From: an uncultured bacterium
GTDB lineage: Bacteria; Vulcanimicrobiota; Vulcanimicrobiia; Vulcanimicrobiales; Vulcanimicrobiaceae
Reading direction: 5' to 3'
Assembly: GCA_964483365.1 (NCBI GenBank)
Contig: CAZABL010000006.1
Coordinates: 6,859-70,858, forward strand
Length of the DNA stretch: 64,000 nt
The notes below the pieces were generated by a model. It searched no databases and had not been told where the DNA came from. It worked only from the letters and a program-made list of their open reading frames with translations. The position numbers were made by a program, and so were the translations under genes. Every line of letters begins with the position of its first letter. Within the stretch, counting starts at the first letter, position 1. This document shows, piece by piece, positions 24,530 through 45,582 of this stretch.

Positions 24530-24549
24530 CGAGACCTCCTTGCGGCGCG

Positions 24550-25537: not shown

Positions 25538-26806
25538 ATGCTCAAACCTGAAGATAACGAACGGCTCGTCCGTATCGGCCCCGGGACGCCGATGGGCGCC
25601 GTATTCCGCCGCTACTGGCAGCCCGCACTGCTCAGCTCTGAGCTTGCGGAGCGTGACGGACCGCCCATACGCCTCCGCCTGCTCGGCGAGGACCTCGTCG
25701 CGTTTCGCGCGAGCGACGGCAGCGTCGGCCTCGTCGACGCGTACTGCCCGCACCGCCGCGCGCCACTGTATTTCGGACGCAACGAAGACTGCGGGATCCG
25801 CTGCGTCTATCACGGCTGGAAGTTCGACACCAGCGGCGCGTGCGTCGACATGCCGTCGGAGCCGCCGGACAGTCTGTTTCGCTCGAAGGTGACGCTCACC
25901 GCGTATCCGACCTTCGAAGCGGGCGGGATCGTGTGGACGTACATGGGCGTCCCCGAGGATGCGCCGCCGCCGCCCGACTACGAGTGGCTGCGCGCGCCGG
26001 ACACGCACCGCTTCGTCTCCAAGACCTTCGAGCACGCCAACTATCTGCAAGGACTCGAGGGCGGGCTCGACACCGCGCACTCGTCGTTCGCGCACAACGA
26101 GCGGCTCGGCGACAAGAACTGGATCCGTAACCGCGACGGCGCGCCGCGGATCGACGTCGAGCGCACCGACTACGGCTTCTCGTACGTCTCGACCCGCGAT
26201 CTCGGCGAGGACGGGCTGTACGTGCGTGTCTATCACTACATCATGCCGGCACAGCAACTGCGCGGTTCGATCACCGGGCTGATGGGTGGACGCGCCGAGG
26301 TCCCCAAGATCGACGGGCACGTCTGGATCCCGATCGACGACGAGCACACGTGGGTGTTCAACTTCGCGTACGGCTACGACGCGAGCGTTCCGCTCAGCGC
26401 CAAGTTCGCCGAGGAATGGGAGACGATGTTCGGCCGTGGCAAAGACGATCTGCTTCCGGGGTTCCGCTTGAAGAAGAACTTGGCTAACGATTACCTGATC
26501 GACCGCGAGCGTCAGAAGACGAAAACGTTCACCGGGATCGTCGGGATCAACACGCAAGACTTCGCGCTGCAGGAAGGGATGGGCCCGATCCCCGACCGCT
26601 CGCAAGAGCATCTCGGCACCTCCGACAAAGCGATCATCGCGTGCCGGCAGCTGTTGCTCGAGGCGACGACGCGCGTCGAGCGCGGCGAAGCGCCGCGCGG
26701 GCTCGATCCCGCGACATATCGCGACGTGCGGCCGTACGACGACTATCTCGAGCGCGGGCGCGAATGGCGCGACGCGTTCGCCGCGGAGTTGGCAGCGAAA
26801 TGGTGA
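25538..26806 (+). CDS. Rieske [2Fe-2S] aromatic ring-hydroxylating oxygenase, alpha-only (phthalate-family type), Rieske-1
   Basis: ORF 25538..26806. Rieske motif CPHRRAPLYFGRNEDCGIRCVYHGWKF. The mononuclear-iron region is GLDTAHSSFAHN. Confidence 0.9.
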   Translation: MLKPEDNERLVRIGPGTPMGAVFRRYWQPALLSSELAERDGPPIRLRLLGEDLVAFRASDGSVGLVDAYCPHRRAPLYFGRNEDCGIRCVYHGWKFDTSGACVDMPSEPPDSLFRSKVTLTAYPTFEAGGIVWTYMGVPEDAPPPPDYEWLRAPDTHRFVSKTFEHANYLQGLEGGLDTAHSSFAHNERLGDKNWIRNRDGAPRIDVERTDYGFSYVSTRDLGEDGLYVRVYHYIMPAQQLRGSITGLMGGRAEVPKIDGHVWIPIDDEHTWVFNFAYGYDASVPLSAKFAEEWETMFGRGKDDLLPGFRLKKNLANDYLIDRERQKTKTFTGIVGINTQDFALQEGMGPIPDRSQEHLGTSDKAIIACRQLLLEATTRVERGEAPRGLDPATYRDVRPYDDYLERGREWRDAFAAELAAKW

Positions 26807-26808
26807 GC

Positions 26809-27207
26809 ATGCGGCGCAGCATCGAGGTCGAGAACTTCAGCCACGGCGGCAATCCGATTCCGGCTGCCTCGCGCGTCGGAAACGTGGTGATGACCGGCGG
26901 GGTCGCCGGCTCGGATCCCGCGACCGGCGTGGTCCCCGACGATCCGCAGCTGCAGGTCGCGCACGCGTTCGCCAACGTCAAGCGCATCCTGGCCGCCGCC
27001 GGCGCGCGCCCCGAGGATATCGTCAAGCTGTCGATCTCGGTGCGTTCGTTCGACCTGCGCCCGGCGATCAACGAGCAGTGGGTGTCGATGTTCCCCGACG
27101 AGCACTCGCGTCCGGCGCGTCACGTTACCCGTTACGACTACTTCAACGGCGCGGTCGCAATCCAATGCGAAGCGTACGCCGTCATCCAGGGAGAGCAACG
27201 CCCGTGA
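26809..27207 (+). CDS. RidA/YjgF-family enamine/imine deaminase-like protein
   Basis: ATG 26809 lies inside ORF 26641..27207, 2 nt after the upstream stop. The product is 132 aa and contains GSDPATGVVPDDPQLQVAHAFANVKRILAAAGA, typical of RidA. Confidence 0.8.
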   Translation: MRRSIEVENFSHGGNPIPAASRVGNVVMTGGVAGSDPATGVVPDDPQLQVAHAFANVKRILAAAGARPEDIVKLSISVRSFDLRPAINEQWVSMFPDEHSRPARHVTRYDYFNGAVAIQCEAYAVIQGEQRP

Positions 27208-28286
27208 TCATCGATGCGCACGCGCACCTCGTCGCGCCGCCCTCGCTCTACGCCTATCGCAGCCTGCTGCAAGTCTCGGGTGGACAACACGGCTCGGCGC
27301 TCGCCGAGGTCAAGGACGACGAGCTGCGCGCCTCCGCGGACTCCAACGTCCGCCTCATGGACGAGGTCGGGACGGATATGCAGCTGCTCTCGCCGCGGCC
27401 GTTCATGCTGATCAACCGCGGGCGGCTCAACGACGCGCGGCTGTGGGCGCGCTCGAACAACGAGATCATCGCGCGCACCGTGCGCTTCCATCCGACCCGC
27501 TTCCGCGGCGTCGCGGCGCTCCCGCAGGTTCCCGGGCAGCCGATCGAGTCGATCTTCGACGAGATCGACTACTGCGTGAAGGAGCTGGGCTTCGTCGGGA
27601 TCCTGCTCAACCCCGACCCCGGCGAGGGGCTCGACCAGACGCCGCCGCTCGGCGATCCGTACTGGTATCCGCTCTACGAGAAGCTCGTCGCGCTCGACCT
27701 CCCCGCGCACATCCACAGCGGCGGCTGCTGCGGTCGCGAGACGTACGACGAGCACTTCATCACGGAAGAGAGCCTCGCGATCACCTCGATCGCGCGTTCC
27801 GACGTATTCGACCGCTTCCCGAATCTCAAGCTGCTGATCAGTCACGGCGGCGGCTCGATCCCGTATCAGATCGGCCGCTGGCGTTCGAACCGGCAGATGC
27901 AGATCAAGAAAGATCTCTCCGATTCGGGCTTCGGCTACCGCGGGAAGTCGAACGACGCCGTCGCGGCGCTGACCGGAAGAGCGCCCGTGCGCGCGGAGAG
28001 CTTCGACGAGACGCTGTGCCGGTTTTGGTTCGACACCGTCATCCACAACAAGAAGTCGCTCGAGCTGTTGTTCGATGTCGTCGGTGCCCAGCGGTGCGTG
28101 TTCGGCACCGAGCGTCCGGGGAGCGGCTCCGCGATCGATCCCGACACGGGTCGTCCGTACGACGATCTGCGCCCGGTGATCGAGAGCATCGAGACGCTGG
28201 ACGCCCAGCAAAAGCGCGGGATCTTCGAGGAGAACGCGCGACAGTTGTTCCCTCGGCTCGGCAGCCCGGCGGCGGTGGCGCGGTGA
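27204..28286 (+). CDS. Amidohydrolase-2 family enzyme, LigJ (4-oxalomesaconate hydratase)-like
   Basis: GTG 27204 overlaps the upstream stop (GTGA). The product starts VIIDAHAHL and contains ELGFVGILLNPDPGEG...PPLGDPYWYPLYEKLVALDLPAHIH and ISHGGGSIPYQIGRW. From memory these resemble LigJ/ACMSD-type enzymes. Confidence 0.75.
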   Translation: MIIDAHAHLVAPPSLYAYRSLLQVSGGQHGSALAEVKDDELRASADSNVRLMDEVGTDMQLLSPRPFMLINRGRLNDARLWARSNNEIIARTVRFHPTRFRGVAALPQVPGQPIESIFDEIDYCVKELGFVGILLNPDPGEGLDQTPPLGDPYWYPLYEKLVALDLPAHIHSGGCCGRETYDEHFITEESLAITSIARSDVFDRFPNLKLLISHGGGSIPYQIGRWRSNRQMQIKKDLSDSGFGYRGKSNDAVAALTGRAPVRAESFDETLCRFWFDTVIHNKKSLELLFDVVGAQRCVFGTERPGSGSAIDPDTGRPYDDLRPVIESIETLDAQQKRGIFEENARQLFPRLGSPAAVAR

Positions 28287-29218
28287 ACCGCGCGCGGTTC
28301 GCGGCGCTGACTGCGGCCGCGTTCGCGGCTGCGCCGGCGCGTGCGTTCGCGCAGTCTCAAGCGGTGCGCCTGGGCACCGTGCCGGTCGAGAGCTACGCGT
28401 TACCGTACTACGCCGCCGAGCAAGGGCAGTTCAAACGCGCCGGGCTCGACGTCTCGCTCAGCTCGTTCAACGGGGGCGGTGCGGTCACGGCGGGTGTCCT
28501 CGGTGGTGCGCTCGACGTCGGCTGCGCGAACATCGGCGCGCTCTCGAACGCCCACGCACGCGGGTTACCCGTGCGCATCATCGCACCGGGCGGGTTGTAC
28601 TCGACGACCTCGCCGACGACGGTGATCGCGGTTGCGAAGAGCTCCTCGCTGACGACTGGGCGCGACCTGAACGGCAAGACGATCGGCGTCTCGACGCTCA
28701 AGGATCTGCAGCAGGCGTCGGTGATGCGTTGGGTCGACGCGAACGGCGGTGACTCCAAGACGCTCAAGTTCCTCGAGCTGCCGATCCCGCAGGTCCCGGC
28801 GGCGCTCCAGGCCGGCCGGCTCGACGCGGGGATCGTGCTCGAGCCGACGCTCTCGTTCGCGAAGAACGACATCCGCGTCATCGGCAAATGCTACGACTCG
28901 ATCGCGAAGACGCTCATGATCAGCTCGTTCTTCGCCACGACCTCATGGCTGGAGAAGAACGAAGCGCTCGCGCGCAAGCTCGCCGCGGCGCTGCGCGAGG
29001 CCGCGACGTGGGCGAACGCCAACCCCGCCGCGTCGGGACAGATCCTCACCCGCGTCGCGAAGCTTCCCGCCGGACAGGTTTCGGCGATGAATCGCGTCGT
29101 GTTCACCGACCACCTCGACGGCGCGCAGTACCAGCCGGTGATCGACGCGCTCGCGCAGTACGGCTTCCTCCCGAAGGCGTTCCCCGCGAGCGAGCTGTTC
29201 TGGGCTCCGATCGGCTGA
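28283..29218 (+). CDS. NMT1/THI5-like substrate-binding protein, SBP-2
   Basis: GTG 28283 overlaps the upstream stop. The signal is VNRARFAALTAAAFAAAPARAFA. It is colinear with SBP-1, SBP-3 and SBP-4 (for example DANGGDSKTLKFLELP). Confidence 0.8.
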   Translation: MNRARFAALTAAAFAAAPARAFAQSQAVRLGTVPVESYALPYYAAEQGQFKRAGLDVSLSSFNGGGAVTAGVLGGALDVGCANIGALSNAHARGLPVRIIAPGGLYSTTSPTTVIAVAKSSSLTTGRDLNGKTIGVSTLKDLQQASVMRWVDANGGDSKTLKFLELPIPQVPAALQAGRLDAGIVLEPTLSFAKNDIRVIGKCYDSIAKTLMISSFFATTSWLEKNEALARKLAAALREAATWANANPAASGQILTRVAKLPAGQVSAMNRVVFTDHLDGAQYQPVIDALAQYGFLPKAFPASELFWAPIG

Positions 29219-29219
29219 G

Positions 29220-30155
29220 ATGCAGGTTCTCATCACCGGCGGGATGGGCTTCATCGGGCTCCATACCGCGCGGGCGTTTCTCGACGACGGACACGAGGTC
29301 GTCGCAACGCAATTTCGCGTCCGCCGCGAGCCGGCGTTCGTTCGCGATGAGCTCGGCGGCCGGCTGCAGCGCGAGGTCGTCGACATTTCGAGTCCGTACG
29401 CGCTCGACGAGATCGTGCAGCGCCACAGGATCGATCAGATCCTCCACCTCGCCGTCCCGGGCGTCGGTGCGCTCACGCCGGCGGAAGACTATCGCACGAA
29501 TATGGACGGCCTTTTGCACGTCCTCGAGAGCGCGCGGCGCAACAACGTCCGGCGCGTCGTCGTCGCAAGCTCCGTCGTCGTCTACAACGGCGTGCGCGGG
29601 CCGTGGTTGGAAAGCGCAGCGCTGCATGTCGAATCGCCGAATGCGACGAGCGCGTACAAGAAAGCGGCCGAGGTGCTCGGCGCGCATTACGCGGACCGCA
29701 CCGGACTCGACGTCGTCTTCGCGCGCATCGCGTACATCTACGGACCGCTCTACCACTCGATGGTGAACGCGCCCAGCCGCCTGGTGCACGGCGCGGTGCG
29801 CGGACTCCCGGCCGACGGACGCGGCGACCCGCACGCGGACGACTGGTACGACTACTGCTACGTCAAAGACTGCGCCGAGGCGCTGCGCTTGCTGCAGATC
29901 GCGCCGCTCGCCGGGCGCTTCTACAACATCGGCGGTGGACGCGCGAGCTCGAATCGAGAGGTTGCGGAGGCGGTGCGCGCCGCGGTTCCCGGGAGCGCGC
30001 CAAAACTCGCCGACGGCCGGCGCGCCGGCGCCGACGGCGACGACGCGTATTTGGATCTCGAGCTGATGACCCGCGAGACCGGCTATCGGCCACGCTACGA
30101 CCTGCGCAGTGGGATCGCGGAGTATGCGTCCTGGCTGCATGACAACGAACTCTGA
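29220..30155 (+). CDS. NAD-dependent epimerase/dehydratase-family (extended SDR) protein
   Basis: ORF 29220..30155, with the ITGGMGFIGLH nucleotide-binding motif. Confidence 0.8.
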   Translation: MQVLITGGMGFIGLHTARAFLDDGHEVVATQFRVRREPAFVRDELGGRLQREVVDISSPYALDEIVQRHRIDQILHLAVPGVGALTPAEDYRTNMDGLLHVLESARRNNVRRVVVASSVVVYNGVRGPWLESAALHVESPNATSAYKKAAEVLGAHYADRTGLDVVFARIAYIYGPLYHSMVNAPSRLVHGAVRGLPADGRGDPHADDWYDYCYVKDCAEALRLLQIAPLAGRFYNIGGGRASSNREVAEAVRAAVPGSAPKLADGRRAGADGDDAYLDLELMTRETGYRPRYDLRSGIAEYASWLHDNEL

Positions 30156-30178
30156 ACCGCGACGGGTGATGACGAGCG

Positions 30179-32222: not shown

Positions 32223-32223
32223 G

Positions 32224-33219
32224 ATGCCAACGATCGAACTGAGCGCCGCGCTCTCCGTCAATGAACGCACGCAACCGCTCCTCGAGGGGAGCGTCTCGCC
32301 CGAGGCGATTCGCCTCGTCGCGACCGGCGTCCATCCGTCCGAGATGTTTTGGCGCCAGCTCAAGTTCGCCGAGTTCGACGTCTCCGAGATGTCGATCGCA
32401 TCGCTGATGATCGCAACCGCCCGCGAGCCGACGGGCTGGGTCGCGCTCCCCGTCTTCACCTCGCGCAACTTCTTCCACACCCGCGTCCTGGTGCGCAGTG
32501 CAGCGGGAATCGAAAAGCCGGAAGATCTGCGCGGAAAGCGCGTCGGCGTCGCAGAGTACCAACAGACGGCAGCGGTGTGGTCGCGCGGAATTCTCAAGGA
32601 CGAGTTCGGCGTCGATCCGACCGAGATCGAATGGTTCATGGAGCGCTCGCCGGAGAAAAGTCACGGCGGCGTCACCGGGTTCACGCCGCCACCCGGCGTG
32701 CGCTTCCACTACATCTCGCCGGATTCCGATCTGGGCGCGATGCTGCTTGCCGATGAGCTCGACGCGCTGCTCGTGTATCTCCCGGTGCGCAATCTCGTCG
32801 ATCGCAGTCGCGCCGATCTTTCGCGTGACCCGCGCGCGCGTCTGCTCTTCCCTGACGCGGGCGCCGAAGGGCGGCGCTATTACGCCAAGACGGGGATGTA
32901 TCCGATCAACCACTGCGCGGTCGTGCGTCGATCGCTCGTCGAACGCCATCCGTGGGTCGTGCTCAACCTCTACAACGCGTTCCTCGCGGCAAAAGAGCTC
33001 GTCGCGGAACGGCGCAACGAGTCGCTGCGACCGTATCTCGAGACCGGTGTCCTCAACGGGTCGGCGAGTGTCGCGCTGGGGCAGGACCCGATGGCGTACG
33101 GCGTGCGCGCCGCGCGTCCGGTCCTCGAGACGATCAGCCGCTATCTGCACGAGCAGGGGCTGACGCCGCGCCGCGTGGGACTCGAGGAAGTTTTCGCGCC
33201 GAACACGCTGGATCTCTAA
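32224..33219 (+). CDS. 4,5-dihydroxyphthalate decarboxylase-like protein (PhtD/Pht5 family)
   Basis: ATG 32224 lies inside ORF 32182..33219. The product is 331 aa and contains FAEFDVSEMSIASL, LPVFTSRNFFHT, LRGKRVGVAEYQQTAAVW and GMYPINHCAVVR. From memory it is colinear with phthalate-pathway decarboxylases. Confidence 0.75.
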   Translation: MPTIELSAALSVNERTQPLLEGSVSPEAIRLVATGVHPSEMFWRQLKFAEFDVSEMSIASLMIATAREPTGWVALPVFTSRNFFHTRVLVRSAAGIEKPEDLRGKRVGVAEYQQTAAVWSRGILKDEFGVDPTEIEWFMERSPEKSHGGVTGFTPPPGVRFHYISPDSDLGAMLLADELDALLVYLPVRNLVDRSRADLSRDPRARLLFPDAGAEGRRYYAKTGMYPINHCAVVRRSLVERHPWVVLNLYNAFLAAKELVAERRNESLRPYLETGVLNGSASVALGQDPMAYGVRAARPVLETISRYLHEQGLTPRRVGLEEVFAPNTLDL

Positions 33220-33220
33220 G

Positions 33221-34234
33221 GTGGCGCAGATCGTCGCCGCGCTCGCAACCTCGCACGGGCCGTTGCTCTCGACGCAGCCCGAGATGTGGCATCTGCGCGC
33301 ACAAGACGACCGTGGGAACCCCGCGCACTGGTACCGCGGTACGTCGTACGATTTTCCGTCGCTCCTCGAGCATCGTGCGCCGGGCTTCGCCGCGCAGGCG
33401 ACCGATGCGGTGAAGCGCGAGCGGTACGAGCGCTGCCAGCGCGCGATCGCGGAGCTTGCGCGCCGCTTCCGTGAGGCGCGCGCCGACCTGGCGATCATCT
33501 TCGGCAACGATCAGCGCGAGATCTATCACGAAGAGCTGACCGGCGCGTTCACGATCTTCAACGGCAGCGAGATTCCGTCGATCCCGTTTTCGGACAAGCA
33601 GAAGGCGTCGATGCCGCAGGGCGTTTTGCTCGCCGAGCGCGGACACACGCCGCCGGGCGGCGCCGTCTATCGCGGCGCGCCCGACGCCGCCACCGCGCTC
33701 GTCGCCTCGCTGCTCGACAGCGAGTTCGACGTCGCGACCTCCGAGCGCATCCCGCTGCACGACGGCGAGGCACGCGGGATCCCGCACGCATTCGGCTTCG
33801 TGTACCGGCGGATCATGGAAGACGCGCCGCCGCCGTCGGTCCCGATCTTCACCAACGTCGGCGAAGGAGTCAATCGTCCGCGGCTGCGCCGCGTGCTGGC
33901 GTTCGGCCATGCGATGAAGCGCGCGATCGACGCGCTCCCGTCCAATCTGCGCGTCGTCTGCATCGCGTCGGGCGGGCTGACGCATTTCTGCGTCGACGAA
34001 GAGCTCGACGCGCAGATCCTCGACGCGATCCGGCGCGGTGACGAGGCGGCGCTCGCCGCGTTTCCGGAAGAATTCTTTTACGGCAACACCTGCGAGATCA
34101 AGAGCTGGTATGCGCTCGCGGCGTGCATGAACGACTGCGGTCGCACGATGCAGATGATCGACTACGTCCCGTGTTACCGCACCGAAGCGGGGACCGGGAG
34201 CGCGATGGGCTTCGCCGCGTGGGAGGCCGCGTGA
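33221..34234 (+). CDS. Class III extradiol ring-cleavage dioxygenase, LigB-family, stand-alone (LigB-1)
   Basis: ORF 33221..34234 (GTG start). The N-terminus is IVAALATSHGP, and ASGGLTHF lies near the C-terminus, as in LigB-type enzymes. Confidence 0.75.
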   Translation: MAQIVAALATSHGPLLSTQPEMWHLRAQDDRGNPAHWYRGTSYDFPSLLEHRAPGFAAQATDAVKRERYERCQRAIAELARRFREARADLAIIFGNDQREIYHEELTGAFTIFNGSEIPSIPFSDKQKASMPQGVLLAERGHTPPGGAVYRGAPDAATALVASLLDSEFDVATSERIPLHDGEARGIPHAFGFVYRRIMEDAPPPSVPIFTNVGEGVNRPRLRRVLAFGHAMKRAIDALPSNLRVVCIASGGLTHFCVDEELDAQILDAIRRGDEAALAAFPEEFFYGNTCEIKSWYALAACMNDCGRTMQMIDYVPCYRTEAGTGSAMGFAAWEAA

Positions 34235-34980
34235 TGCGCGGATTGCGCGGGCGTAAGGCGCTCGTCACCGGCGGAGCGCGCGGGTTGGGCGCTGCGGCGG
34301 CGCTGCGGCTCGCGGAAGAAGGCGTGGACGTTGGGATCCTCGACCGTGACGACGCGCGCGCGACCGTCGAGCGCGCACGCGGTCACGGCGTGCGTGCCGA
34401 GAGCGTCAGCGCCGACGTCCGTGACGAAGCCGCGGTCAACGGTGCGATGGGCGCGATCGTCGAGCGCTTCGGCGGGATCGACGTGCTGGTCAACAATGCC
34501 GGCGTGCTCGCGCCGCGGGTTCCCTTTGAAAAGATGAGCCGCGACGACTTCGCGCGTTATCTCGATGTGAACGTGCTCGGCACGTTCGTGATGACGAAAG
34601 CCGCTCTGCCGCATCTGCGCACGAGCAGTGCCGGACGGATCGTGAACGTCGCGTCGCGCACGTTCTTCATGGGAAACCCGGGGCAGAGCGGCTACGTCGC
34701 GAGCAAGGGTGGGATCATCGGTCTCACCCGCAGCCTCGCGCGCGAGCTCGGGCCTGCCGGGATCACCGTGAACGCGGTGATGCCGGGGATGGTTCCGACC
34801 GAGGGGACGCGCGAGAACAACGCTGAGTCCGTCTTCGTTGACGTTGCGAAACGCCAGGCGATCGACCGGATCGTCGAACCTGCCGATCTCGCCGCGCTCA
34901 TCGCGTTTCTCGCAAGCGACGATGCCGCGATGATAACGGGTCAGGCGATCGTCTGCGACGGCGGAGGGTACCTGCATTGA
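34234..34980 (+). CDS. Classical short-chain dehydrogenase/reductase
   Basis: ATG 34234 shares one nucleotide with the upstream stop (TGATG). It has TGGARGLG, NNAG and YVASKGG, the classical SDR motifs. Confidence 0.85.
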   Translation: MRGLRGRKALVTGGARGLGAAAALRLAEEGVDVGILDRDDARATVERARGHGVRAESVSADVRDEAAVNGAMGAIVERFGGIDVLVNNAGVLAPRVPFEKMSRDDFARYLDVNVLGTFVMTKAALPHLRTSSAGRIVNVASRTFFMGNPGQSGYVASKGGIIGLTRSLARELGPAGITVNAVMPGMVPTEGTRENNAESVFVDVAKRQAIDRIVEPADLAALIAFLASDDAAMITGQAIVCDGGGYLH

Positions 34981-35924
34981 GTGCGGAGACGACAGGCAAT
35001 CTGCCCCAAGGGATTGCGCGCGTCAGCGTCCTCCCCGGTCCGCACGATCACGCCGGCGAGAGCGACTGGGACCGCATCATCCTTCCCGACGGCGTCAAGG
35101 AGCGGCTCAAGAACCAGGCGCTGCTGACGCTCCGTCATCGCGAGCAGTTGCGCGCCGTCGGTCTGGGTCCGCAAGGACTGATGGTCTTCGCGGGGCCGCC
35201 GGGGACCGGCAAGACGACGCTGGCGCGCGGGCTCGCGTTCGAGGTTGCGCACGAGCTCGGTCACGAGGGAACGACGACGTTCCTCGAGATCGATCCGCAC
35301 GCGCTGCCGAGCGAGATGCTCGGCGAAAGCCAACGCGCGGTCACGAAACTGCTCACGAAGACGATCCCCGAGTACGCGATGCGGCGCCCGACGACGATCG
35401 TGCTGATCGACGAGGTCGAAGCGTTCGCGGTTCGTCGCAGCGCGGCGTCGTTCGAGACGAATCCGGTCGACTTGCACCGCGCGACCGACGCGGTCCTCAT
35501 GGGGCTCGACCAAGTCGCGGCGCGTTGCCCGGGGACGCTCTTCATCGCGACGACGAACTTCATCGAGGCGATCGATGAAGCGATGCTCTCGCGCGCCGAT
35601 CTCGTGCTGCCGTTCCATCTCGCCAGCGGCGATGTCGCCGCGCAGATCATCACCCGTTCGCTGCGCGCGCTCGCGACCGCGTGGCCTGATATCCTCGCGC
35701 TCGCGCGCGACGAGGACGCGATTCGGGCGCTCGCCGCCGATCTCGCCGGTTGGGACGGACGCCGCCTCACGAAACTTCCGCTCGTCGCGCTCGCCCGGCG
35801 CGAGTCGACCGCGCGCGACCCCAACCGGCTCACCTTCGACGATCTGCGCGCCGCCTGCGAAGAGCTCGACCCGCGCCGTTTTGCACAGCGCGCCGAGCGC
35901 CGGCTGACCGAGATCCTCGCCTGA
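34977..35924 (+). CDS. AAA+ ATPase of the Pch2/TRIP13-like type
   Basis: ORF 34977..35924 with TTG overlapping the SDR stop (TTGA). Walker A is GPPGTGKT and Walker B is IVLIDEVE. Family-like strings outside the core include WDRIILPDGVKERL, LEIDPHALPSEMLGES, NPVDLHRATDAVLMGLDQV, ATTNFIEAIDEAMLSRADL and GRRLTKLPLVALA. Confidence 0.8.
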   Translation: MSAETTGNLPQGIARVSVLPGPHDHAGESDWDRIILPDGVKERLKNQALLTLRHREQLRAVGLGPQGLMVFAGPPGTGKTTLARGLAFEVAHELGHEGTTTFLEIDPHALPSEMLGESQRAVTKLLTKTIPEYAMRRPTTIVLIDEVEAFAVRRSAASFETNPVDLHRATDAVLMGLDQVAARCPGTLFIATTNFIEAIDEAMLSRADLVLPFHLASGDVAAQIITRSLRALATAWPDILALARDEDAIRALAADLAGWDGRRLTKLPLVALARRESTARDPNRLTFDDLRAACEELDPRRFAQRAERRLTEILA

Positions 35925-35944
35925 CTCGCGTGAAGGGACACACC

Positions 35945-36898
35945 ATGCCGCTTTCGTCCTACGCTCGACCGCTCGCACTCGTCGCCGTCCTCGCGCTCGC
36001 CGCTGCGTCGTCGCACGACGCTCGCGCCGCCGACCGGCCGTCCGTCACCGTCGCGGTCACCCGCTCCGCCGACGCGGTGCCCTTCTTCTACGCGCTGAAA
36101 ACCGGCATGTTCGAGAAAGCGGGACTCGTCGTGCACTACGACGCGATGGCGAGCGGCGGCGCAATCGCATCGGCCGTGGTCGGCGGCGCGGCGACGATCG
36201 GCTTCAGCAACGTGCAGACGCTGATCGCCGCGTACGCGAAACACGTTCCGTTCACGATCGTTGCTCCCGGCGGCGAGTACAACGACGCGAAGCCGACGAC
36301 CGAGCTCCTCGTCGCCGGTGACTCACCGATCAAGACGGCAAAGGATCTCGAAGGCAGAACCGTGGCGGTCGGCTCGCTGCAGGATCTGCAGACGCTCAGC
36401 GTCTTCGCGTGGATGGCGGCGAACGGCGCGGATCCCGCCAAGGTGCAGTTCATCGAGACGCCGCAGAGCGCAGCCCCGGCGCTGCTGCAAACCAAACGTG
36501 CCAACGCGATCGTCGTCTCCGAGCCGAACTTGGAGTACGCACAGAACAACGGCGCGCGCGTCCTCGGGAAGCCGTACAGTGCGATCGCGCCGCGGCTCCT
36601 GGTGAGCAGTTGGTACGCGACGCAGGCGTGGGCGAAGGCGAATCCCGACGCGGTCACGCGCTTCGCCGACGTGATGCGCCGTGCGAGCGAATACGTAAAC
36701 GCGCATCCTGATGAGATGGTCGGGATCATCCACGACTACACCAACATCCCGCTCGAGACGCTGCGCAAGATGGCACGCGCGAAGCAAGGGACGAGCATCG
36801 CGCCGGCCGACGTGCAAGCCGTCATCGACACCGCGGCGCGTTTCAAGGTCATCGATAAACCTTTCCCCGCTCGCGAGATCATCGCCGGGAACGCCTGA
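35945..36898 (+). CDS. NMT1/THI5-like substrate-binding protein, SBP-3
   Basis: ATG 35945 lies inside ORF 35750..36898. The signal is MPLSSYARPLALVAVLALAAASSHDARA. It is paralogous to the other NMT1-like SBPs. Confidence 0.8.
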   Translation: MPLSSYARPLALVAVLALAAASSHDARAADRPSVTVAVTRSADAVPFFYALKTGMFEKAGLVVHYDAMASGGAIASAVVGGAATIGFSNVQTLIAAYAKHVPFTIVAPGGEYNDAKPTTELLVAGDSPIKTAKDLEGRTVAVGSLQDLQTLSVFAWMAANGADPAKVQFIETPQSAAPALLQTKRANAIVVSEPNLEYAQNNGARVLGKPYSAIAPRLLVSSWYATQAWAKANPDAVTRFADVMRRASEYVNAHPDEMVGIIHDYTNIPLETLRKMARAKQGTSIAPADVQAVIDTAARFKVIDKPFPAREIIAGNA

Positions 36899-36915
36899 GA
36901 GAGCTCGAGGACAGC

Positions 36916-37947
36916 ATGGTCAACCGTACCGTAACGGGACTCACGCACTACGACATCCAACAGCGCCGGCGGCGTCAGATCGTCGAGGACGCGCGCACGC
37001 AGCAACGCGCGATCGTGCGCAAGAACGACGTCGAGCTCGTGCAGACACCGCGCGGGATGCGCTCGGGCTGCTACATCGGCGTCGACGGCGATCGGCCGTC
37101 GCGCATCATCGACGCGTACGTGCACGAGGTCGATCCCGGCGTCGTCACGACGATTCACCGCCATTCGTGGGACGCGGTGATGCTCGTCGTCGAGGGCCAC
37201 GGCTGGACCGAAGTCAACGGCGTGCGCCACGAGTACCGTCCCTGGGACAGCATCTATCTGCCGGCCTGGGCGTGGCACCGCCAAGGCAACGACGGCACGA
37301 AGACCGCGCGCTTCATGACGTTTTCGACCGAGCCGACGACCTCGGTGATCGGCGCGTCGTTCCTCGAGGACCGCGGTCAGGCACCGTTCGCCGAGCTGCC
37401 GGGGCCGCCGGTGACGAGCGCCGGTGTCACCGGCGCCGATCCATACGCGCGGCGACTGCGCCGCCTCGACGAGTACCAGAGCGACTATCGCACCGGGAAG
37501 ATCCACGTGCGGTACGAGGATCTCACCTTGCTCGTGAACCCGAAGGGAACGCGAAGCACGTTCATGCTCGATCCGTTTCTGGGCAGCAAGACGTCGGGGC
37601 TGACGCTGGCGATGAATCAGCTTGCGCCGCAGAAGTGGCAGAAGAAGCATCGTCACGGCGGCGAGGCGTGGCTGTACGCGCTCGAGGGCCGCGGCCACAG
37701 CGTGATCGACGGGCAGCGCTACGACTGGAGCGAAGGCGATCTCGTCGTCGTCGACCACTGGGCGTGGCATCAGCACTTCAACAGCGATCCCGACCTGACG
37801 GCGCGGCTGGTGCGCGTGCACAACTTCTCGGGGATCTACGACGCGATGCGCGCGCTGCTCGATCCGCTCAATCTCGAAGAGGAAGAGCCCAACTCCGAGC
37901 CCGACGTCTCGCACGTCGTCTGGCCCGCGGATCGACGGCCGGACTAG
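36916..37947 (+). CDS. Bicupin dioxygenase (gentisate 1,2-dioxygenase-like)
   Basis: ORF 36916..37947. It has two cupin modules, with HRHSWDAVMLVVEGHG and HRHGGEAWLYALEGRG. Confidence 0.75.
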   Translation: MVNRTVTGLTHYDIQQRRRRQIVEDARTQQRAIVRKNDVELVQTPRGMRSGCYIGVDGDRPSRIIDAYVHEVDPGVVTTIHRHSWDAVMLVVEGHGWTEVNGVRHEYRPWDSIYLPAWAWHRQGNDGTKTARFMTFSTEPTTSVIGASFLEDRGQAPFAELPGPPVTSAGVTGADPYARRLRRLDEYQSDYRTGKIHVRYEDLTLLVNPKGTRSTFMLDPFLGSKTSGLTLAMNQLAPQKWQKKHRHGGEAWLYALEGRGHSVIDGQRYDWSEGDLVVVDHWAWHQHFNSDPDLTARLVRVHNFSGIYDAMRALLDPLNLEEEEPNSEPDVSHVVWPADRRPD

Positions 37948-37950
37948 GCG

Positions 37951-39147
37951 TTGAGCGCCTCCGGCGTGGTGCGGCTCGGAATCGCCGGCCTCGGTGCAGC
38001 AGGCCGTTCGATGCTTTCCGCGATCGACGCCCGTCAGGACGTGTCGCTGACGGCGGTCTGCGATCCGTCGCCGGAAGCACGCGAACGCGTCGCCGCGAGC
38101 TGCGCCGTTCGCGCCGTTGCAGAGATCGACGCGCTGCTCGCCGATCCCGAGGTCGACGCAGTCTATATCGCCACGCCGACAGCGCTGCACGAACGGCACG
38201 CGATCCAGGCCGCGCGGGCCGGCAAGCACGTCCTGGTCGAGAAGCCGATGGCCGTCGACGTCGCGGGCGCGACGCGCATGGTCGACGCCGCGCACAACGC
38301 CGGCGTCGTCCTGGTCGTCGGACACTCGCACAGCTACGACGGGCCGTACCGCGCGATGCGCGAGATCATCGCGAGCGGTGAGCTCGGCCGCGTGCGGATG
38401 ATGCACAGCATGTACTTCAGCGACTGGCTCTACCGACCGCGCCGCGCGGACGAGCTCGACGCTCGGCTCGGCGGCGGCGTCGCCTTTCGTCAAGGTTCTC
38501 ATCAGTTCGACATCCTGCGGCTGCTCGGCGGCGGAGTGGTGCGCAGCGTTCGTGCGCAGACGTTCGACTGGGATCCGCACCGCCACGCAATCGGGGCATA
38601 CCAGGCGTTTCTCACGTTCGAAGACGGGACGACCGCGACGGCGATGTACAACGGCTACGGAGCCTTCCTAACCTCCGAGCTCTGCTGGGGCATCGGCGAG
38701 TTGGGGGAAGCCGTGCCGGACGACCGTGCCGGCGCGAGCCGTCGCGCGTTTCAGCTGCGTAGCGCCGCCGATGAATCCGCTGCAAAGCAAGCACGAGCGC
38801 CGTTGGCGGAACGCACGCCGTTCCAGCCGTTCTTCGGTTGGCTCGTGGTGAGCTGCGAGGGCGGAGATATCCGCCAGTCGCGTGCGGGTCTGTATCTTTA
38901 CACCGAGCGCGGGCGCGAGGAGCGCGCCGTGCGCAACGACGGCAGCACGCGCGATGCCGTGCTCGCGGAGTTCGTCGACGCGATCGCCGGGACGCGGCCG
39001 CCGTTGCACGACGGCCGCTGGGGACGCGCGACCCTCGAGCTCTGCATCGGCGCGATGGAGTCTTCACAGGCTGGTCGCGAGCTCACTCTCGTCCACCAAG
39101 TTTCAGCCGACTCGAACTCTCTCCAATCCCATGGGAGCATACGCTGA
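37951..39147 (+). CDS. Gfo/Idh/MocA-family oxidoreductase, paralog 1
   Basis: ORF 37951..39147 (TTG start). It has VRLGIAGLGAAG, KHVLVEKPMA and a long C-terminal domain. It is paralogous to 44316..45560 (shared FRQG.HQ.D..RL.GGG..RSVR and HDG.WGRATLE). Confidence 0.8.
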   Translation: MSASGVVRLGIAGLGAAGRSMLSAIDARQDVSLTAVCDPSPEARERVAASCAVRAVAEIDALLADPEVDAVYIATPTALHERHAIQAARAGKHVLVEKPMAVDVAGATRMVDAAHNAGVVLVVGHSHSYDGPYRAMREIIASGELGRVRMMHSMYFSDWLYRPRRADELDARLGGGVAFRQGSHQFDILRLLGGGVVRSVRAQTFDWDPHRHAIGAYQAFLTFEDGTTATAMYNGYGAFLTSELCWGIGELGEAVPDDRAGASRRAFQLRSAADESAAKQARAPLAERTPFQPFFGWLVVSCEGGDIRQSRAGLYLYTERGREERAVRNDGSTRDAVLAEFVDAIAGTRPPLHDGRWGRATLELCIGAMESSQAGRELTLVHQVSADSNSLQSHGSIR

Positions 39148-39151
39148 AGTG

Positions 39152-40129
39152 ATGAACGCCAGGAAATCGTTCCCTCTCGGCCTCGTTCGCGTCGTGTGCG
39201 CCGCCGGTGCATTGGCACTGTCGTCGTCGTTGGCGGCGGCCGACGCTCCCCGTCCGCTCGTACACGTCCACATCGCCGGCTCGCCGAACGACGACATGAC
39301 GACGATCGTGTACGCACAGCAGAGCGGGCTGTTCGAGAAGGCGGGCTTGGACGTCACCGTCGACAAGACGACGAGTGGATCGGCCGCGGCTACGGGCGTC
39401 GCCGGAGGCGCCTTCGACGTCGGCAAGGCGAGCATCTCGTCGATCTTCGACGCGCATCAGCGCGGCGTGCCGTTCACGATCGTCGCGCCGGACGGAATCT
39501 ACACCAGCAAGGAGCCCTATGGCGGAATGCTGATGACGAAAAGTGCGGCGCTCAAGACCGGGAAGGACGCCGAGGGAAAGACATTCAGCGTCGCCTCACT
39601 GAGCTCGATCGGCCGCGTCGCGTTGGCAGCGTGGATCGACGGCAACGGCGGCGACGTGAGCGCGGTGAAGTTCGTCGAGCTGCCGTTCAGCGCAGTGGCC
39701 GCTGCAATCGACCAGAAGCGCATCGTCGGCGGCGAGATCGGTCAGCCGGCGCAAGCTGAGGATCTCGCGACCGGACGGTTTGCGTTCTTCCCCGCGTACA
39801 ACGCGATCGCGCCGGAGTTTTGCGTCTCCGTCTTCTTCACGACCAAAGAGTTCTCGGCGAAGCACCCCGACGCGATGCGCTCGCTCGTGCGCGTCCTGTA
39901 CGACGCCGCCCGCTATACCAACGCACACCCGGAAGCGACCGTCAAGATGATGGCGGATTTCACCGGTGTGCCGCTTGCCGTCATGCAGAAAATTCCGCGT
40001 GTGGTGTTCGCGACCGATCTGCAGGTGGCGCAGATCCAACCCGCAATCGACGCGGCGGCAAAGTACGGAACGCTCAAGCGCGCGTTCCCGGCCCGCGAGT
40101 TGGTCGACGGGAACGTTCCGGTACGCTGA
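39152..40129 (+). CDS. NMT1/THI5-like substrate-binding protein, SBP-4
   Basis: ATG 39152 lies inside ORF 38882..40129, 4 nt after the upstream stop. The signal is MNARKSFPLGLVRVVCAAGALALSSSLAAA. Confidence 0.8.
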   Translation: MNARKSFPLGLVRVVCAAGALALSSSLAAADAPRPLVHVHIAGSPNDDMTTIVYAQQSGLFEKAGLDVTVDKTTSGSAAATGVAGGAFDVGKASISSIFDAHQRGVPFTIVAPDGIYTSKEPYGGMLMTKSAALKTGKDAEGKTFSVASLSSIGRVALAAWIDGNGGDVSAVKFVELPFSAVAAAIDQKRIVGGEIGQPAQAEDLATGRFAFFPAYNAIAPEFCVSVFFTTKEFSAKHPDAMRSLVRVLYDAARYTNAHPEATVKMMADFTGVPLAVMQKIPRVVFATDLQVAQIQPAIDAAAKYGTLKRAFPARELVDGNVPVR

Positions 40130-40153
40130 TCGAGACGAGGAGAGAATCGTATC

Positions 40154-41455
40154 ATGCTGAGCACGGCGGAGAACGAACGCCTGACGCACATCGGTCCGGG
40201 AACCCCGATGGGGGAACTGCAGCGGCGCTATTGGCACCCGATCGCGGGGATCGACGAGATGAGCGACCGGTGGACGAAACGTGTTCGGCTGCTCGGTGAA
40301 GATCTCGTCCTCTACAAGGATCGCAGCGGACGCTTCGGTCTGATCCACGAGTTTTGTCCGCATCGCCGCGCATCGTTCGCGTACGGGATCCCGGAAAGCG
40401 ACGGCATTCGCTGCCCGTACCACGGCTGGAAGTTCGACGGGGCGGGCCACTGCATCGAACAGCCGAACGAACCGGCCGAGAGTAGCTTCAAGAGCAAGGT
40501 GCATACGCCGGCGTATCCGGTGCAAGAGTTGGGTGGACTGCTGTGGGCGTACCTCGGGCCGCAGCCGCTGCCGCTCTTGCCGCGTTGGGAAGGACTCGTG
40601 CACGACGGTGCGATCCGCACGATCGGGATGGCGGTCGTCCCGTGCAACTGGCTCCAGATCATGGAGAACTCGTTCGATCCGATCCACACCGAGTGGCTGC
40701 ACGGCCGATTTCAGGAGTTTCTCGAGGAAGAGCGCGGCGCGAAGTACGCGATCTCACGCAAGCATCTCGCAATCGCGTTCGAGGAGTTCGAGTACGGTGT
40801 TTACAAACGGCGCCTGCTCGCCGGAGCGCGCGAGGACTCCGACGACTGGAAGGTCGGCCACCCGGTGATCTTCCCCAACACCCTCGCGGTCGGCAGCGGC
40901 GGCGGGCGCCTGTGGAAGATGCACGTGTATCAGATCCGCGTCCCGATCGACGACGAGAACACGCTGCACATCTGGTACACCGCGTACGAAGCGCCGCCGA
41001 GCGTGACGATCCCCGAGCACCTGCTCGCGCGCATCCCGGTCTACGACGTTCCCTTCCGCGACGAGAACGGCGAGTTTCTCATGGACATGATCGATGCACA
41101 AGACATCATGGCATGGGTCTCGCAGGGACGGATCTTCCAGCGCCAGACGGAAGCGCTCGGGACGTCCGACAAGGGCGTCATTCTCTTCCGCAAGATCCTT
41201 GCGCGCGAGCTCGAGAAAAGTGAGCGCGGCGAGGATCCGATGGGTGTGATTCGCGATCCGGCGAAGAACGAGGTCATCGCGTTCCCGCTCGAGCGCGACA
41301 AGGCGCACTTCACCGACGGCTTCGAAAGCCTGATGCGCCGCCAATACGCGCGCTATGCCCCGTTCGCGGACGACTTGGTACGACTGTTCAACGACTATAG
41401 CGAGCAGCGTCTGCGGGAAGAGTTCCCGCAGACCGCCGCCGCGGGAGGATCATGA
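40154..41455 (+). CDS. Rieske [2Fe-2S] oxygenase alpha-only subunit, Rieske-2
   Basis: ORF 40154..41455. It has the Rieske motif CPHRRASFAYGIPESDGIRCPYHGWKF and NWLQIMENSFDPIHTEWLH. Confidence 0.9.
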   Translation: MLSTAENERLTHIGPGTPMGELQRRYWHPIAGIDEMSDRWTKRVRLLGEDLVLYKDRSGRFGLIHEFCPHRRASFAYGIPESDGIRCPYHGWKFDGAGHCIEQPNEPAESSFKSKVHTPAYPVQELGGLLWAYLGPQPLPLLPRWEGLVHDGAIRTIGMAVVPCNWLQIMENSFDPIHTEWLHGRFQEFLEEERGAKYAISRKHLAIAFEEFEYGVYKRRLLAGAREDSDDWKVGHPVIFPNTLAVGSGGGRLWKMHVYQIRVPIDDENTLHIWYTAYEAPPSVTIPEHLLARIPVYDVPFRDENGEFLMDMIDAQDIMAWVSQGRIFQRQTEALGTSDKGVILFRKILARELEKSERGEDPMGVIRDPAKNEVIAFPLERDKAHFTDGFESLMRRQYARYAPFADDLVRLFNDYSEQRLREEFPQTAAAGGS

Positions 41456-42279
41456 TGGGCGAGATCGTCGCGGCGATGACGACGGTGCACGCGCCGCAGC
41501 TCATCACCCGTCCGGCCGACAACCCGCCCGAGATGCTCGACGCCAGCATCGCCGCGATGCGGCAGCTCGGACGTGCGCTCGACGAGGCCAAACCGGACGC
41601 GTTGATCGTGATCGGGATCGACCACGTCGAGGCGTTCTCGCTGCAGGCAATCCCGACGTTCGCGATCCTGACCAGCGAGCGCGCGAACGCGGAGTTCGGC
41701 AAGCGGACCTACGATGTCCCGATCCACCAGCCGCTCGCACTCGGTCTGCTCGACGGTCTCGTCGACCGCGGGTTCGACCTCACGTTTTCGCAGCAGGCGA
41801 TGCTCGGGCACGCGTTCGCGGTCCCGTTCGAGTACGTCCTCGAGAAGCGCGAGATCCCGGTCGTCCCGCTGTTCGTCAACGTCTACTTGCCGCCGCTCCC
41901 CAAACCGCGCCGCTGTGCGGCGCTCGGCGCCGCGATCGCGCAGGTGATTGCGGAGCGCCCGGAGCGCGTTGCCATCTTGGCGAGCGGCGGGATGTCGCAC
42001 TATCCGGGGACCTCGCAGTACGGCAATCCGAACTACGCTTTCGATCGCTGGGCGATGGACGCGATCGAGGACGGCGATCTTGACGCGTTGCTCGATCTCA
42101 CGCTCGACCAGCTCGACGAGGTCGGGAACGGCGAGATGCTCGGGTGGTTCATCTTGTTCGGCGCGATCGGGAACCGTCCGGGAACGGTGCTGAGCTATCA
42201 GCCGCTGTGGCATCACGGCCACGGCGTCATCCAATTCATCCCTCCCGTCGCCGCGAAGGTTGGAGCACGTCCGGCATGA
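41452..42279 (+). CDS. LigB-family extradiol dioxygenase catalytic subunit (LigB-2)
   Basis: ORF 41452..42279; ATG overlaps the upstream stop and follows GGGAGGA. It has IVAAMTTVHAP, IGIDHVE and ASGGMSHYPG. Confidence 0.8.
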   Translation: MMGEIVAAMTTVHAPQLITRPADNPPEMLDASIAAMRQLGRALDEAKPDALIVIGIDHVEAFSLQAIPTFAILTSERANAEFGKRTYDVPIHQPLALGLLDGLVDRGFDLTFSQQAMLGHAFAVPFEYVLEKREIPVVPLFVNVYLPPLPKPRRCAALGAAIAQVIAERPERVAILASGGMSHYPGTSQYGNPNYAFDRWAMDAIEDGDLDALLDLTLDQLDEVGNGEMLGWFILFGAIGNRPGTVLSYQPLWHHGHGVIQFIPPVAAKVGARPA

Positions 42280-42584
42280 CGCCGCGCGAACCGTTCCCAT
42301 TCAAGGGCGACACGCATCTCTTCTACCGGCGCATCGAGCCCGAGTACTTCGGCTTCAACCGCGCGCTCTACGAGCTACGAACCGAGCCGCAGAAACGGCG
42401 CGAGCTGCTCGACGATCCCGACGCGTTCGCGACGGCGCGCGGACTCGATCGGCGCGCGGTGCGCGCGCTCTGCGACAACGACATCGCGAGCGTCGTCGAG
42501 TGCGGTGGGCATCCGATCCTGGGGTGGACCGTCATCTTGCTGCTGCGCTTCGACCGCGGTGACACCAGCAAGTCGGCGCACTAG
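42276..42584 (+). CDS. LigA-like small subunit of a LigAB-type dioxygenase
   Basis: ATG 42276 overlaps the LigB-2 stop (ATGA). The product is 102 aa. FGFNRALYELRTEPQKRRELLDDPDAFATARGLDRRAVRALCDNDIASVVECGGHP resembles the LigA helical subunit. Confidence 0.6.
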   Translation: MTPREPFPFKGDTHLFYRRIEPEYFGFNRALYELRTEPQKRRELLDDPDAFATARGLDRRAVRALCDNDIASVVECGGHPILGWTVILLLRFDRGDTSKSAH

Positions 42585-43309: not shown

Positions 43310-43314
43310 AACGG

Positions 43315-45560: not shown

Positions 45561-45582
45561 GCGCAGGGGCTGCGTCGCGCGC

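Follow-up and report, generated by a model that had tools for sequence, protein, structure and literature searches.

How do parts of several aromatic breakdown routes come to lie together in one run of nineteen genes, and what might such a run accomplish? The question is raised by a stretch of 64,000 nucleotides from an uncultured bacterium of the family Vulcanimicrobiaceae (the window), in which positions 25538-42584 hold a block of plus-strand genes, named here g1 to g19. A previous interpretation made from the letters alone, referred to below as the sequence-only reading, had seen in this block a mix of protocatechuate 4,5-cleavage, phthalate and gentisate parts, and the family assignments bear this out. 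It had also held that the pathway logic could not be read off from known models; a partial match to the route for a lignin dimer, together with modules that can be told apart, says otherwise. We consider it probable that the block is a LysR-controlled chromosomal array for the uptake and breakdown of lignin- or phthalate-type aromatic carboxylic acids, built from at least four fused modules. More tentatively, we suggest that its TRIP13-type AAA+ ATPase, g12, may use ATP to activate its bicupin, g14, to assemble it or to load it with metal, which would be a metabolic role of a TRIP13 protein independent of HORMA proteins.

Long co-directional clusters of aromatic catabolic genes are already known; this one comes from an under-studied phylum and has diverged enzymes. 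It provides a readable framework for a large aromatic-acid array in the Vulcanimicrobiota (WPS-2), a soil phylum of which, to our knowledge, a single species has been cultured and whose role in the turnover of lignin and plasticisers is essentially unknown. The analysis also exposes a widespread gene pair, made of a bicupin and a TRIP13 ATPase of the type found in cyclic oligonucleotide-based antiphage signalling systems (CBASS).

A packed chromosomal block made of separable modules

Genes were called from six-frame open reading frames (ORFs) with a filter on GC content at the third codon position (GC3), walking back from each stop; at 62-72% GC, the window makes raw ORF lists noisy. Exactly 19 coding sequences, all on the plus strand, lie within 25538-42584, which upholds the co-directional run, with gaps of at most 24 nt, described by the sequence-only reading. 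Their GC3 is 0.77-0.88, as against 0.42-0.56 at codon position 2. A significant Pfam domain is present in 18 of the 19 (the exception is g19), 17 have orthologues in one or both of two close syntenic contigs, L001 and L004 (the exceptions are g11 and g17), and the frames agree with public gene calls on identical contigs. An artefact of ORFs in high-GC DNA was rejected, the calls being backed by GC3, domain matches and orthologues.

Nine junctions overlap (g1/g2, g2/g3, g3/g4, g6/g7, g7/g8, g10/g11, g11/g12, g17/g18 and g18/g19) by 4 nt (or 1 nt), in overlaps of GTGA, ATGA or TTGA type. Overlaps had been reported before, with a count of eight; the number given here uses the start nearest the upstream stop, and the choice between GTG and ATG at adjacent starts changes it. 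The other junctions are gaps of 1-24 nt, the widest being that between g16 and g17. Such packing would suit, indirectly, a single transcript of the 19 genes. Divergent from the block and 106 nt upstream of g1 lies the gene of a LysR-type regulator (24550..25431, minus strand; HTH_1 and LysR_substrate domains), which is also kept in L001 and L004 and probably controls the block.

The block is chromosomal. A plasmid or mobile origin was rejected because the flanks encode an Lhr helicase, a homoserine dehydrogenase and a polymerase and the composition is uniform, at about 0.65-0.70 GC. The flanking polymerase, which is DnaE2-like (48133-51516), shares 79-83% identity with its counterparts in Vulcanimicrobium alpinum, Ca. 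Eremiobacteraeota, Ca. Elarobacter and Ca. Velthaea, all of them Vulcanimicrobiota (WPS-2/Eremiobacterota).

Comparative genomics, which the sequence-only reading had proposed for the block, resolves it into modules that are found on their own elsewhere. The close relatives hold 12-gene and at least 14-gene versions that differ in gene content. L001 (GCA_037441145.1) has the LysR gene, g1-g7, g9, g10 and g12-g14, followed by g18-g19 on the opposite strand, and is without g8, g11 and g15-g17; L004, which among the relatives on long contigs is the closest (84-92% identity), has g8 and g15-g16 and is without g1, g7, g11 and g12. In L005, a g10-like gene is found with all three types of RraA gene and an amidohydrolase gene. 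L006, from a Limnocylindria metagenome-assembled genome (MAG), carries one operon of bicupin, AAA and solute-binding protein (SBP) genes and another of GntR, g10, amidohydrolase and Rieske genes, with a g6/g7 pair between them, and L002, from Pigmentiphaga humi, carries TctC, Rieske and g10-like genes with, on the opposite strand, a CobW gene and an amidohydrolase gene that is a LigY orthologue. The crude GC3 gene caller used for the relatives over-extends starts and dropped genes, and neighbour families were used only with tblastn or Pfam backing.

Since the relatives hold subsets of the block in other orders and orientations, the block is an evolutionary composite; its modular composition is evident from these locus comparisons. 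The modules are a set of the type known for 5,5'-dehydrodivanillate (DDVA), a biphenyl lignin dimer, namely g10, g3 and g17 with the RraA-type g6-g8; a phthalate-type set, g1, g9 and g15; the LigB/LigA-like pair g18-g19; and the AAA+ ATPase g12 together with g14, a bicupin resembling gentisate dioxygenase. The super-operon may have originated from small modules that circulate independently among phyla and were welded together here.

One junction of L004 deserves mention. At 10001-11062 of that locus, the g10 orthologue is 353 amino acids (aa) long and matches only 80% of g10, and g11 and g12 are missing directly after it, a pattern that suggests a deletion by which the 3' end was fused or replaced.

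Known routes that the modules resemble

The DDVA route described for Sphingobium sp. SYK-6 needs two ring cleavages, a decarboxylase and an aldolase (PMC6874591). Part of the block matches this route, because g3 scores higher against LigY than against LigJ and a g10 relative in Pigmentiphaga lies beside a LigY orthologue and a LigXa-like gene. The product of g3 (27204..28286, plus strand) is an Amidohydro_2 enzyme of the LigY-like, meta-cleavage-product hydrolase type, related also to LigJ and to ACMSD-type enzymes; its PDB matches reach 295 bits for LigY (5vn5/6e6i) and 224 bits for LigJ, and its former description as LigJ-like has to be given up. Since the true LigY orthologue, the amidohydrolase of the Pigmentiphaga locus, attains 519 bits to LigY (230 to LigJ), g3 is a diverged paralogue. 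g10 (33221..34234, plus strand) encodes an extradiol dioxygenase of the LigB superfamily, about 335 aa long, with a weak LigB Pfam match (38 bits) and 1204 homologues at E <= 1e-10. It is 63% identical to the Pigmentiphaga gene located between a LigXa-like Rieske gene and the LigY orthologue, and because a g10-family gene adjoins that orthologue, the family occupies the position of LigZ in the DDVA route. An invariant G-N-D-Q-x-E (NDQxE) motif runs through the g10 family (alignment A3), standing where LigB has its NDH metal-ligand motif, and the iron site of the family may be built differently from that of LigB. In the Pigmentiphaga locus (L002, 11051-12082), the gene of a CobW/COG0523-type metallochaperone GTPase directly precedes the LigY orthologue in the same direction, which suggests dedicated metal delivery to this LigY-type hydrolase.

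Both Rieske oxygenases of the block are alpha-only proteins with Rieske and LigXa_C domains. g17 (40154..41455, plus strand) belongs to the LigXa-like clade and shares 43-44% identity with the Rieske proteins encoded next to LigZ/LigY-type genes in L002 and L006, its relatives overall reaching only 41-44% identity; a paralogue, 65% identical, lies at 45583-46923 on the minus strand. g1 (25538..26806, plus strand) is phthalate-4,5-dioxygenase-like. Its top PDB matches, all of full length, are 9ina (330 bits), 7fhr (307 bits; labelled 'putative phthalate 4,5-dioxygenase') and 7fjl/7v25 (274 bits), and it is 42-45% identical to Rieske genes that accompany the bicupin/AAA pair (L098, L096, L024). 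As the two Rieske clades track different modules, the modules are interleaved within the 19-gene run.

The LigK-like RraA-fold protein of the sequence-only reading has the fold that was claimed and is three genes in tandem, not one: g6 (30179-30871), g7 (30868-31548) and g8 (31545-32222), all on the plus strand. These paralogues have an RraA-like domain, with the fold of 4-hydroxy-4-methyl-2-oxoglutarate (HMG)/4-carboxy-4-hydroxy-2-oxoadipate (CHA) aldolases; they fall into three orthogroups, and each retains the DG.xRD motif, which contains the catalytic R-D pair of these enzymes. g8 alone passes the NF006731 cut-off for CHA aldolase (188 bits > 179), which places it among the LigK-type CHA/HMG aldolases; it scores 172 bits on TIGR02798 (cut-off 304.5) and 130 bits against 3NOJ.

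Like ligXa-ligZ-ligY of SYK-6, the block brings together a LigXa_C Rieske oxygenase, a LigB-superfamily dioxygenase of about 335 aa and an Amidohydro_2 hydrolase, and its RraA-type aldolases fit the fate of the 4-carboxy-2-hydroxypenta-2,4-dienoate (CHPD) product. Unlike the SYK-6 genes, g3, g10 and g17 are scattered within the block, which is also without equivalents of LigXc, LigXd, LigW, DdvK and DdvR. A Pfam survey of all sizeable ORFs of the window found no LigXc ferredoxin, no LigXd reductase and no LigW decarboxylase, the last of which g9 could replace. The DDVA regulator of SYK-6 is a MarR protein and uptake there is of the major facilitator superfamily (MFS)/TonB kind, whereas the block has a LysR regulator and binding proteins.

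The two genes at the end of the block recall the protocatechuate 4,5-cleavage pathway. g18 (41452-42279, plus strand) encodes a LigB-type extradiol dioxygenase beta subunit (LigB Pfam 118 bits), with PDB matches of 72 bits to MhpB-type proteins and 70 to LigB and NCBIfam scores of 75-107 bits against cut-offs of 286-837. g19 (42276-42584, plus strand) encodes a small LigA-like subunit, whose only Pfam match is LigA at 16.9 bits and whose L001 orthologue reaches 23.4 bits, both below the cut-off of 25.3; no LigA chain in the PDB was matched by g19. The pair is inverted in L001. LigAB-like content is present, as had been noticed, with the correction that two LigB-superfamily genes lie in the block. 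The block resembles the ligABCIUJK pathway in its LigB/LigA-like pair, Gfo/Idh/MocA dehydrogenase, Amidohydro_2 enzyme and RraA-fold aldolases, and departs from it by having neither LigI nor LigU, three RraA paralogues instead of one, and a g3 nearer to LigY. No LigI/LigJ pair is found: g3 is the single Amidohydro_2 gene of the block, and LigI is not among its PDB matches. LigI and LigJ are both Amidohydro_2 proteins themselves, so that 'LigI missing' amounts to the block having only one amidohydrolase.

The phthalate-type parts had been recognised correctly as to their content, Pfam and PDB matches agreeing on the two alpha-only Rieske oxygenases, a 4,5-dihydroxyphthalate-decarboxylase-like protein and the short-chain dehydrogenases/reductases (SDRs). 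The decarboxylase-like protein, g9 (32224..33219, plus strand), is a cytoplasmic enzyme with a binding-protein fold, in which no signal peptide was found; its match to PDB 9jp7 (E 7e-52 over residues 3-329) places it with these decarboxylases by homology only. g15 (37951..39147, plus strand; GFO_IDH_MocA plus C3 domain) encodes a Gfo/Idh/MocA NAD(P) dehydrogenase of the dihydrodiol or 4-carboxy-2-hydroxymuconate-6-semialdehyde (CHMS) dehydrogenase type and is present in L004. It is the one such dehydrogenase inside the block, to which several had been credited; the second, a 41% identical paralogue, lies outside, at 44316-45659 on the minus strand. Of the two SDRs, g5 (29220..30155, plus strand) is an extended member of the NAD-dependent epimerase/dehydratase family (Epimerase domain, 111 bits) without an equivalog match and conserved in L001 and L004, and g11 (34231..34980, plus strand) is a classical one (adh_short and adh_short_C2), which is missing from L001 and L004 and recurs on near-identical public contigs. 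The phthalate 4,5-dioxygenase pathway of Pseudomonas, Burkholderia and Comamonas (pht/oph) is like the block in its g1- and g9-type and Gfo/Idh/MocA enzymes. Unlike it, the block has no reductase, does not keep g1, g9 and g15 adjacent and gives no equivalog-level match, and the clade of g1 goes with the bicupin/AAA pair rather than with g9.

The three binding proteins of the sequence-only reading are indeed secreted NMT1-type solute-binding proteins, encoded on the plus strand by g4 (28283..29218; NMT1/SsuA type, NMT1 and NMT1_2 domains, signal-like N-terminus MNRARFAALTAAAFAAAPARAFAQ), g13 (35945..36898) and g16 (39152..40129), the latter two each with an NMT1 domain and a signal-like N-terminus. 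Beyond the regulator, at 23567..24652 on the minus strand, a fourth such protein (NMT1, 97 bits; Tat/Sec-like N-terminus) is 36% identical to g4, g13 and g16, the four being 36-38% identical mutually. An NMT1 gene also accompanies the AAA/bicupin pair in L001, L006, L096 and L098. The sequence-only reading had seen no oxygenase reductase and no membrane transporter in the window; the absence of a reductase and of a cognate permease holds, and the broader statement about transporters does not, an FtsX/MacB-type permease (19029-21668) and KdgT (8213-9277) being present. With an SBP_bac-type protein at 43315-44319, the secreted solute-binding proteins of the window number five. NMT1-type permease and ATPase genes do lie nearby in the relatives L001 and L097.

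A TRIP13-type ATPase linked to a bicupin

g14 (36916..37947, plus strand) encodes a gentisate-1,2-dioxygenase-like bicupin. Its two Cupin_2 domains and a match to the gentisate dioxygenase 3bu7 in the PDB (68 bits) agree with the gentisate-type bicupin of the sequence-only reading; its NCBIfam scores are far below the cut-offs, the best being 76 bits, against 650, for the 5-aminosalicylate 1,2-dioxygenase MabB. HRH...H metal motifs are present in both cupin domains, with histidines invariant in 23 orthologues.

What had been noted simply as an AAA+ ATPase can now be specified as a TRIP13/Pch2/Cap6-type remodeller linked to this bicupin. g12 (34977..35924, plus strand) matches the PADLOC TRIP13 model PDLC00915 over its full length (305 bits, E 1e-91, residues 6-301 to profile positions 6-295 of 302), on which a genuine CBASS protein scores 472 bits. 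Sequence searches of Pfam and the PDB go no further than the classic AAA clade, where Cdc48, VAT and Pch2/TRIP13 match it best. In Foldseek searches with its AlphaFold model (pLDDT 79), the top 13 are human TRIP13 and C. elegans PCH-2, and the E. coli CBASS Trip13 ranks 15. A tblastn search of plasmids with g12 found 12 homologues at 40-47% identity, and all five that were inspected belong to CBASS type III operons, made up of the AAA gene, two small (HORMA) genes, a CD-NTase gene and an effector gene. In a neighbour-joining tree without bootstrap, g12-type proteins are monophyletic and sister to CBASS Trip13; they have an HxH motif of their own and a pore loop that differs from that of CBASS Trip13. 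g12 is among the best-conserved genes of the block, 82-83% identical in L001 and the Limnocylindria MAG (g10 reaches 61-68%), and the bicupin-linked clade contains more than 100 clusters (at 90% identity) at 55% identity or more; homologues of g12 number about 3,300 in all.

The linkage is invariant. A g14-type bicupin lies on the same strand and within two genes of the g12 homologue in 22 of 22 loci, from at least five phyla. In all 16 distant loci it is immediately upstream of the AAA gene, on the same strand and often with overlapping stop and start codons; in the six closer loci, the window counted, it is within two genes. The distant loci come from a contig profile scan with an AAA alignment, which generic Walker A matches swamped, which missed the close clade and in which 16 of 80 loci were of the true family, the remaining 64 or so (other AAA proteins, about 25-36% identity) serving as outgroups only. 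The distant carriers are Streptomyces (three loci), Amycolatopsis, Actinophytocola, Kibdelosporangium, Actinoallomurus, Mycolicibacterium wolinskyi, an unclassified Actinomycetota MAG, Acidimicrobiia, Acidobacteriota/Vicinamibacterales and Burkholderiales, and the pair appears, from these sequences, to be conserved across Actinomycetota, Acidobacteriota, Burkholderiales, Chloroflexota and Vulcanimicrobiota. Pairwise identities of the AAA proteins and the bicupins correlate with r = 0.88, a descriptive value in which shared phylogeny is uncontrolled. Elsewhere, the pair's neighbours include SBP_bac-type binding proteins, a fused permease, an ABC ATPase, MFS and class II aldolase proteins, EutA-like proteins, ferredoxin and reductase, PhtD-like proteins, an amidohydrolase and RraA; the SBP and class II aldolase families stand beside the pair in 12 and 5 clustered loci, respectively, the window's copy included, and they do so in other phyla too.

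g12 aligns end to end with CBASS Trip13/Cap6 and shares its length and N-terminal region. It differs from the CBASS type III ATPases in forming a separate clade, in having the bicupin as invariant neighbour and in its catabolic or transport contexts, the 16 distant loci having a bicupin upstream and not, as in CBASS, HORMA genes downstream. Of the CBASS type III parts, the Trip13/Cap6 ATPase is the one present: the Pfam survey revealed no HORMA, CD-NTase or effector domain in genes of the block or window, and neither g13 nor g14 had a PADLOC match. In function, an analogy can be drawn with AAA+ enzyme activases such as Rubisco activase/CbbX, g12 being a stand-alone AAA+ protein of about 300 aa beside an enzyme proposed as its client; g12 belongs, however, to another AAA+ subfamily, its best model being TRIP13 and not CbbX/SpoVK.

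In bacteria, TRIP13/Pch2-type ATPases are otherwise known only as HORMA-resetting regulators of CBASS. A literature search on bicupins paired with an AAA+ ATPase, or Trip13 with a cupin, found nothing relevant, and the coupling of a TRIP13-type ATPase with a bicupin seems not to have been described before. If the ATPase does service the bicupin, TRIP13/Pch2 remodeller biology would reach past HORMA proteins, and the two would form a new kind of enzyme-activase pair, in which the ATPase, as a factor for maturation or repair, may be required to express such ring-cleavage enzymes heterologously. Named cultured strains carry the pair (Mycolicibacterium wolinskyi ATCC 700010, Streptomyces flaveolus NRRL B-1589 and Kibdelosporangium aridum DSM 43828), which should make the idea directly testable.

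Two observations on the pair's distant homologues may be added. In some bicupin-linked AAA proteins (P0171, P0180 and P0213) the C-terminal tail is rich in His and Asp, as in HDHDHGHDLEHGHNHSHDHDHSH, and recalls the tails of metallochaperones. A EutA-like protein (PF06277, the ethanolamine ammonia-lyase reactivase family) is encoded near the pair in L011, L012, L020, L025 and L026.

Proposed working, rival explanations and neighbouring genes

In the working that we infer for the array, the Rieske oxygenases g1 and g17 would hydroxylate or O-demethylate the ring with a reductase whose gene lies elsewhere. g15, and perhaps g5 and g11 as well, would be the NAD-dependent dehydrogenases that re-aromatise the oxygenation product, and the decarboxylase-like g9 would take off a carboxyl group. 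Three ring-cleaving enzymes, g10, g18-g19 and g14, would open different hydroxylated intermediates, and the LigY-like g3 with the RraA-type g6-g8 would carry the products of cleavage on to pyruvate or to compounds of the oxaloacetate type. The modules would have been fused into one co-directional, translationally coupled run, in which g12, a TRIP13/Cap6-type hexameric remodeller outside the CBASS context, would act on the bicupin g14.

Several points weigh against this proposal. A scan for sigma-70 promoters and intrinsic terminators gave 2 against 1.2 and 12 against 8.6 expected, respectively, no excess over shuffles, and is uninformative for this phylum. The Pfam survey found in the window no ferredoxin or reductase, no BPD_transp_1-type permease for the binding proteins and no second amidohydrolase of LigI, LigJ or LigW type. 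g3 is only a distant relative of LigY, the LigZ assignment of g10 is drawn from synteny, and with NDQxE in place of the NDH of LigB, the metal site of g10 may differ. Nearly all the enzymes are far below NCBIfam equivalog cut-offs, so that no substrate is established. Lastly, L004 has a bicupin without the AAA protein, which makes the ATPase dispensable at least there.

So tight a packing, in which nine junctions overlap, together with a single divergent LysR gene, could also be read as the sign of one dedicated pathway, in which all 19 genes would serve a single complex substrate (for instance a biaryl lignin dimer resembling DDVA, or an aromatic with several carboxyl groups) and each ring-cleavage enzyme would take a successive intermediate. 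The DDVA route itself combines two ring cleavages with a decarboxylase and an aldolase (PMC6874591), and the window's version of the block is the most complete among its relatives. However, the modules are apart, reordered and on opposite strands in the relatives, and g1, g7, g8, g11 and g12 are each dispensable in close ones; moreover, the three binding proteins, at 36-38% identity, suggest several ligands, and a paralogous Rieske/Gfo module converges on the block just downstream. We regard a single pathway as rather unlikely. An amino-aromatic substrate of the aminobenzoate, aminosalicylate or aminophenol type seems less likely still. Here a RidA protein would deaminate an enamine or imine and the bicupin would be a 5-aminosalicylate-type dioxygenase; the RidA/YjgF-family gene g2 (26803..27207, plus strand; Ribonuc_L-PSP, 54 bits) does keep its position in L001 (67% identity) and L004 (87%), MabB is the top NCBIfam match of g14, and g3 is related to ACMSD-type enzymes. 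Yet MabB is matched at a small fraction of its cut-off, RidA is far under the NCBIfam equivalog cut-offs and missing from 19 of the 22 bicupin-AAA loci, and the block has no aminotransferase, amidase or glutamine-synthetase-like activation gene. The hint at such a substrate that the sequence-only reading took from RidA has gained no further support.

For g12, two main alternatives to a role in servicing g14 can be named, a reset function in regulation and some unrelated client. TRIP13-family proteins are conformational resetters (PDB 6p8v, 6f0x) and bicupins can be non-catalytic binding proteins, from which one might picture, by analogy, a switch that resets a ligand-bound bicupin acting as sensor or inhibitor rather than catalyst. 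With gentisate-dioxygenase-type HRH...H in both cupin domains of 23 out of 23 orthologues and the pair embedded among transporters and catabolic enzymes, such a switch is distinctly improbable. g12 might, alternatively, be a remnant or stray part of CBASS, carried into a catabolic operon where it plays no part in metabolism, as would suit a full-length TRIP13/Cap6 homologue all of whose closest relatives with an annotated function come from CBASS operons; against this stand the lack of a HORMA, CD-NTase or effector gene in the window, the strong conservation of a clade of its own and the same bicupin family next to it at every locus, which together make a remnant highly improbable.

Just downstream of the block lies a convergent four-gene operon on the minus strand (42581..46923), which is functionally related to it. 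Besides a Rieske oxygenase and a Gfo/Idh/MocA dehydrogenase, it encodes, within 42581-44319, a binding protein of the SBP_bac type and a protein with a class II aldolase fold, which could be a PhtC-like decarboxylase. On the minus strand at 58871-60592 lies the gene of a tannase/feruloyl esterase family protein (327 bits), with an alpha/beta hydrolase at 57545-58852, and the two could release aromatic acids from esters for the block.

Other genes of the window touch on different subjects. A compact minus-strand trio at 5944-9277, encoding a PdxA-like dehydrogenase, a four-carbon acid-sugar kinase (SBD_N and NBD_C) and the KdgT permease, resembles tetronate (threonate/erythronate) utilisation genes. 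Next to it, at 9305-10444 and 10692-11843 on the same strand, are tandem paralogues of about 380 aa, 84% identical, which have lipoprotein-like N-termini and in which no Pfam domain was found. On the plus strand at 61964-63733, a 589-aa fusion joins a divergent 4Fe-4S mono-cluster domain (Fer4_19), two CDGSH domains and a bacterial-like globin, an unusual architecture and the sole iron-sulfur protein of the window besides the Rieske oxygenases.

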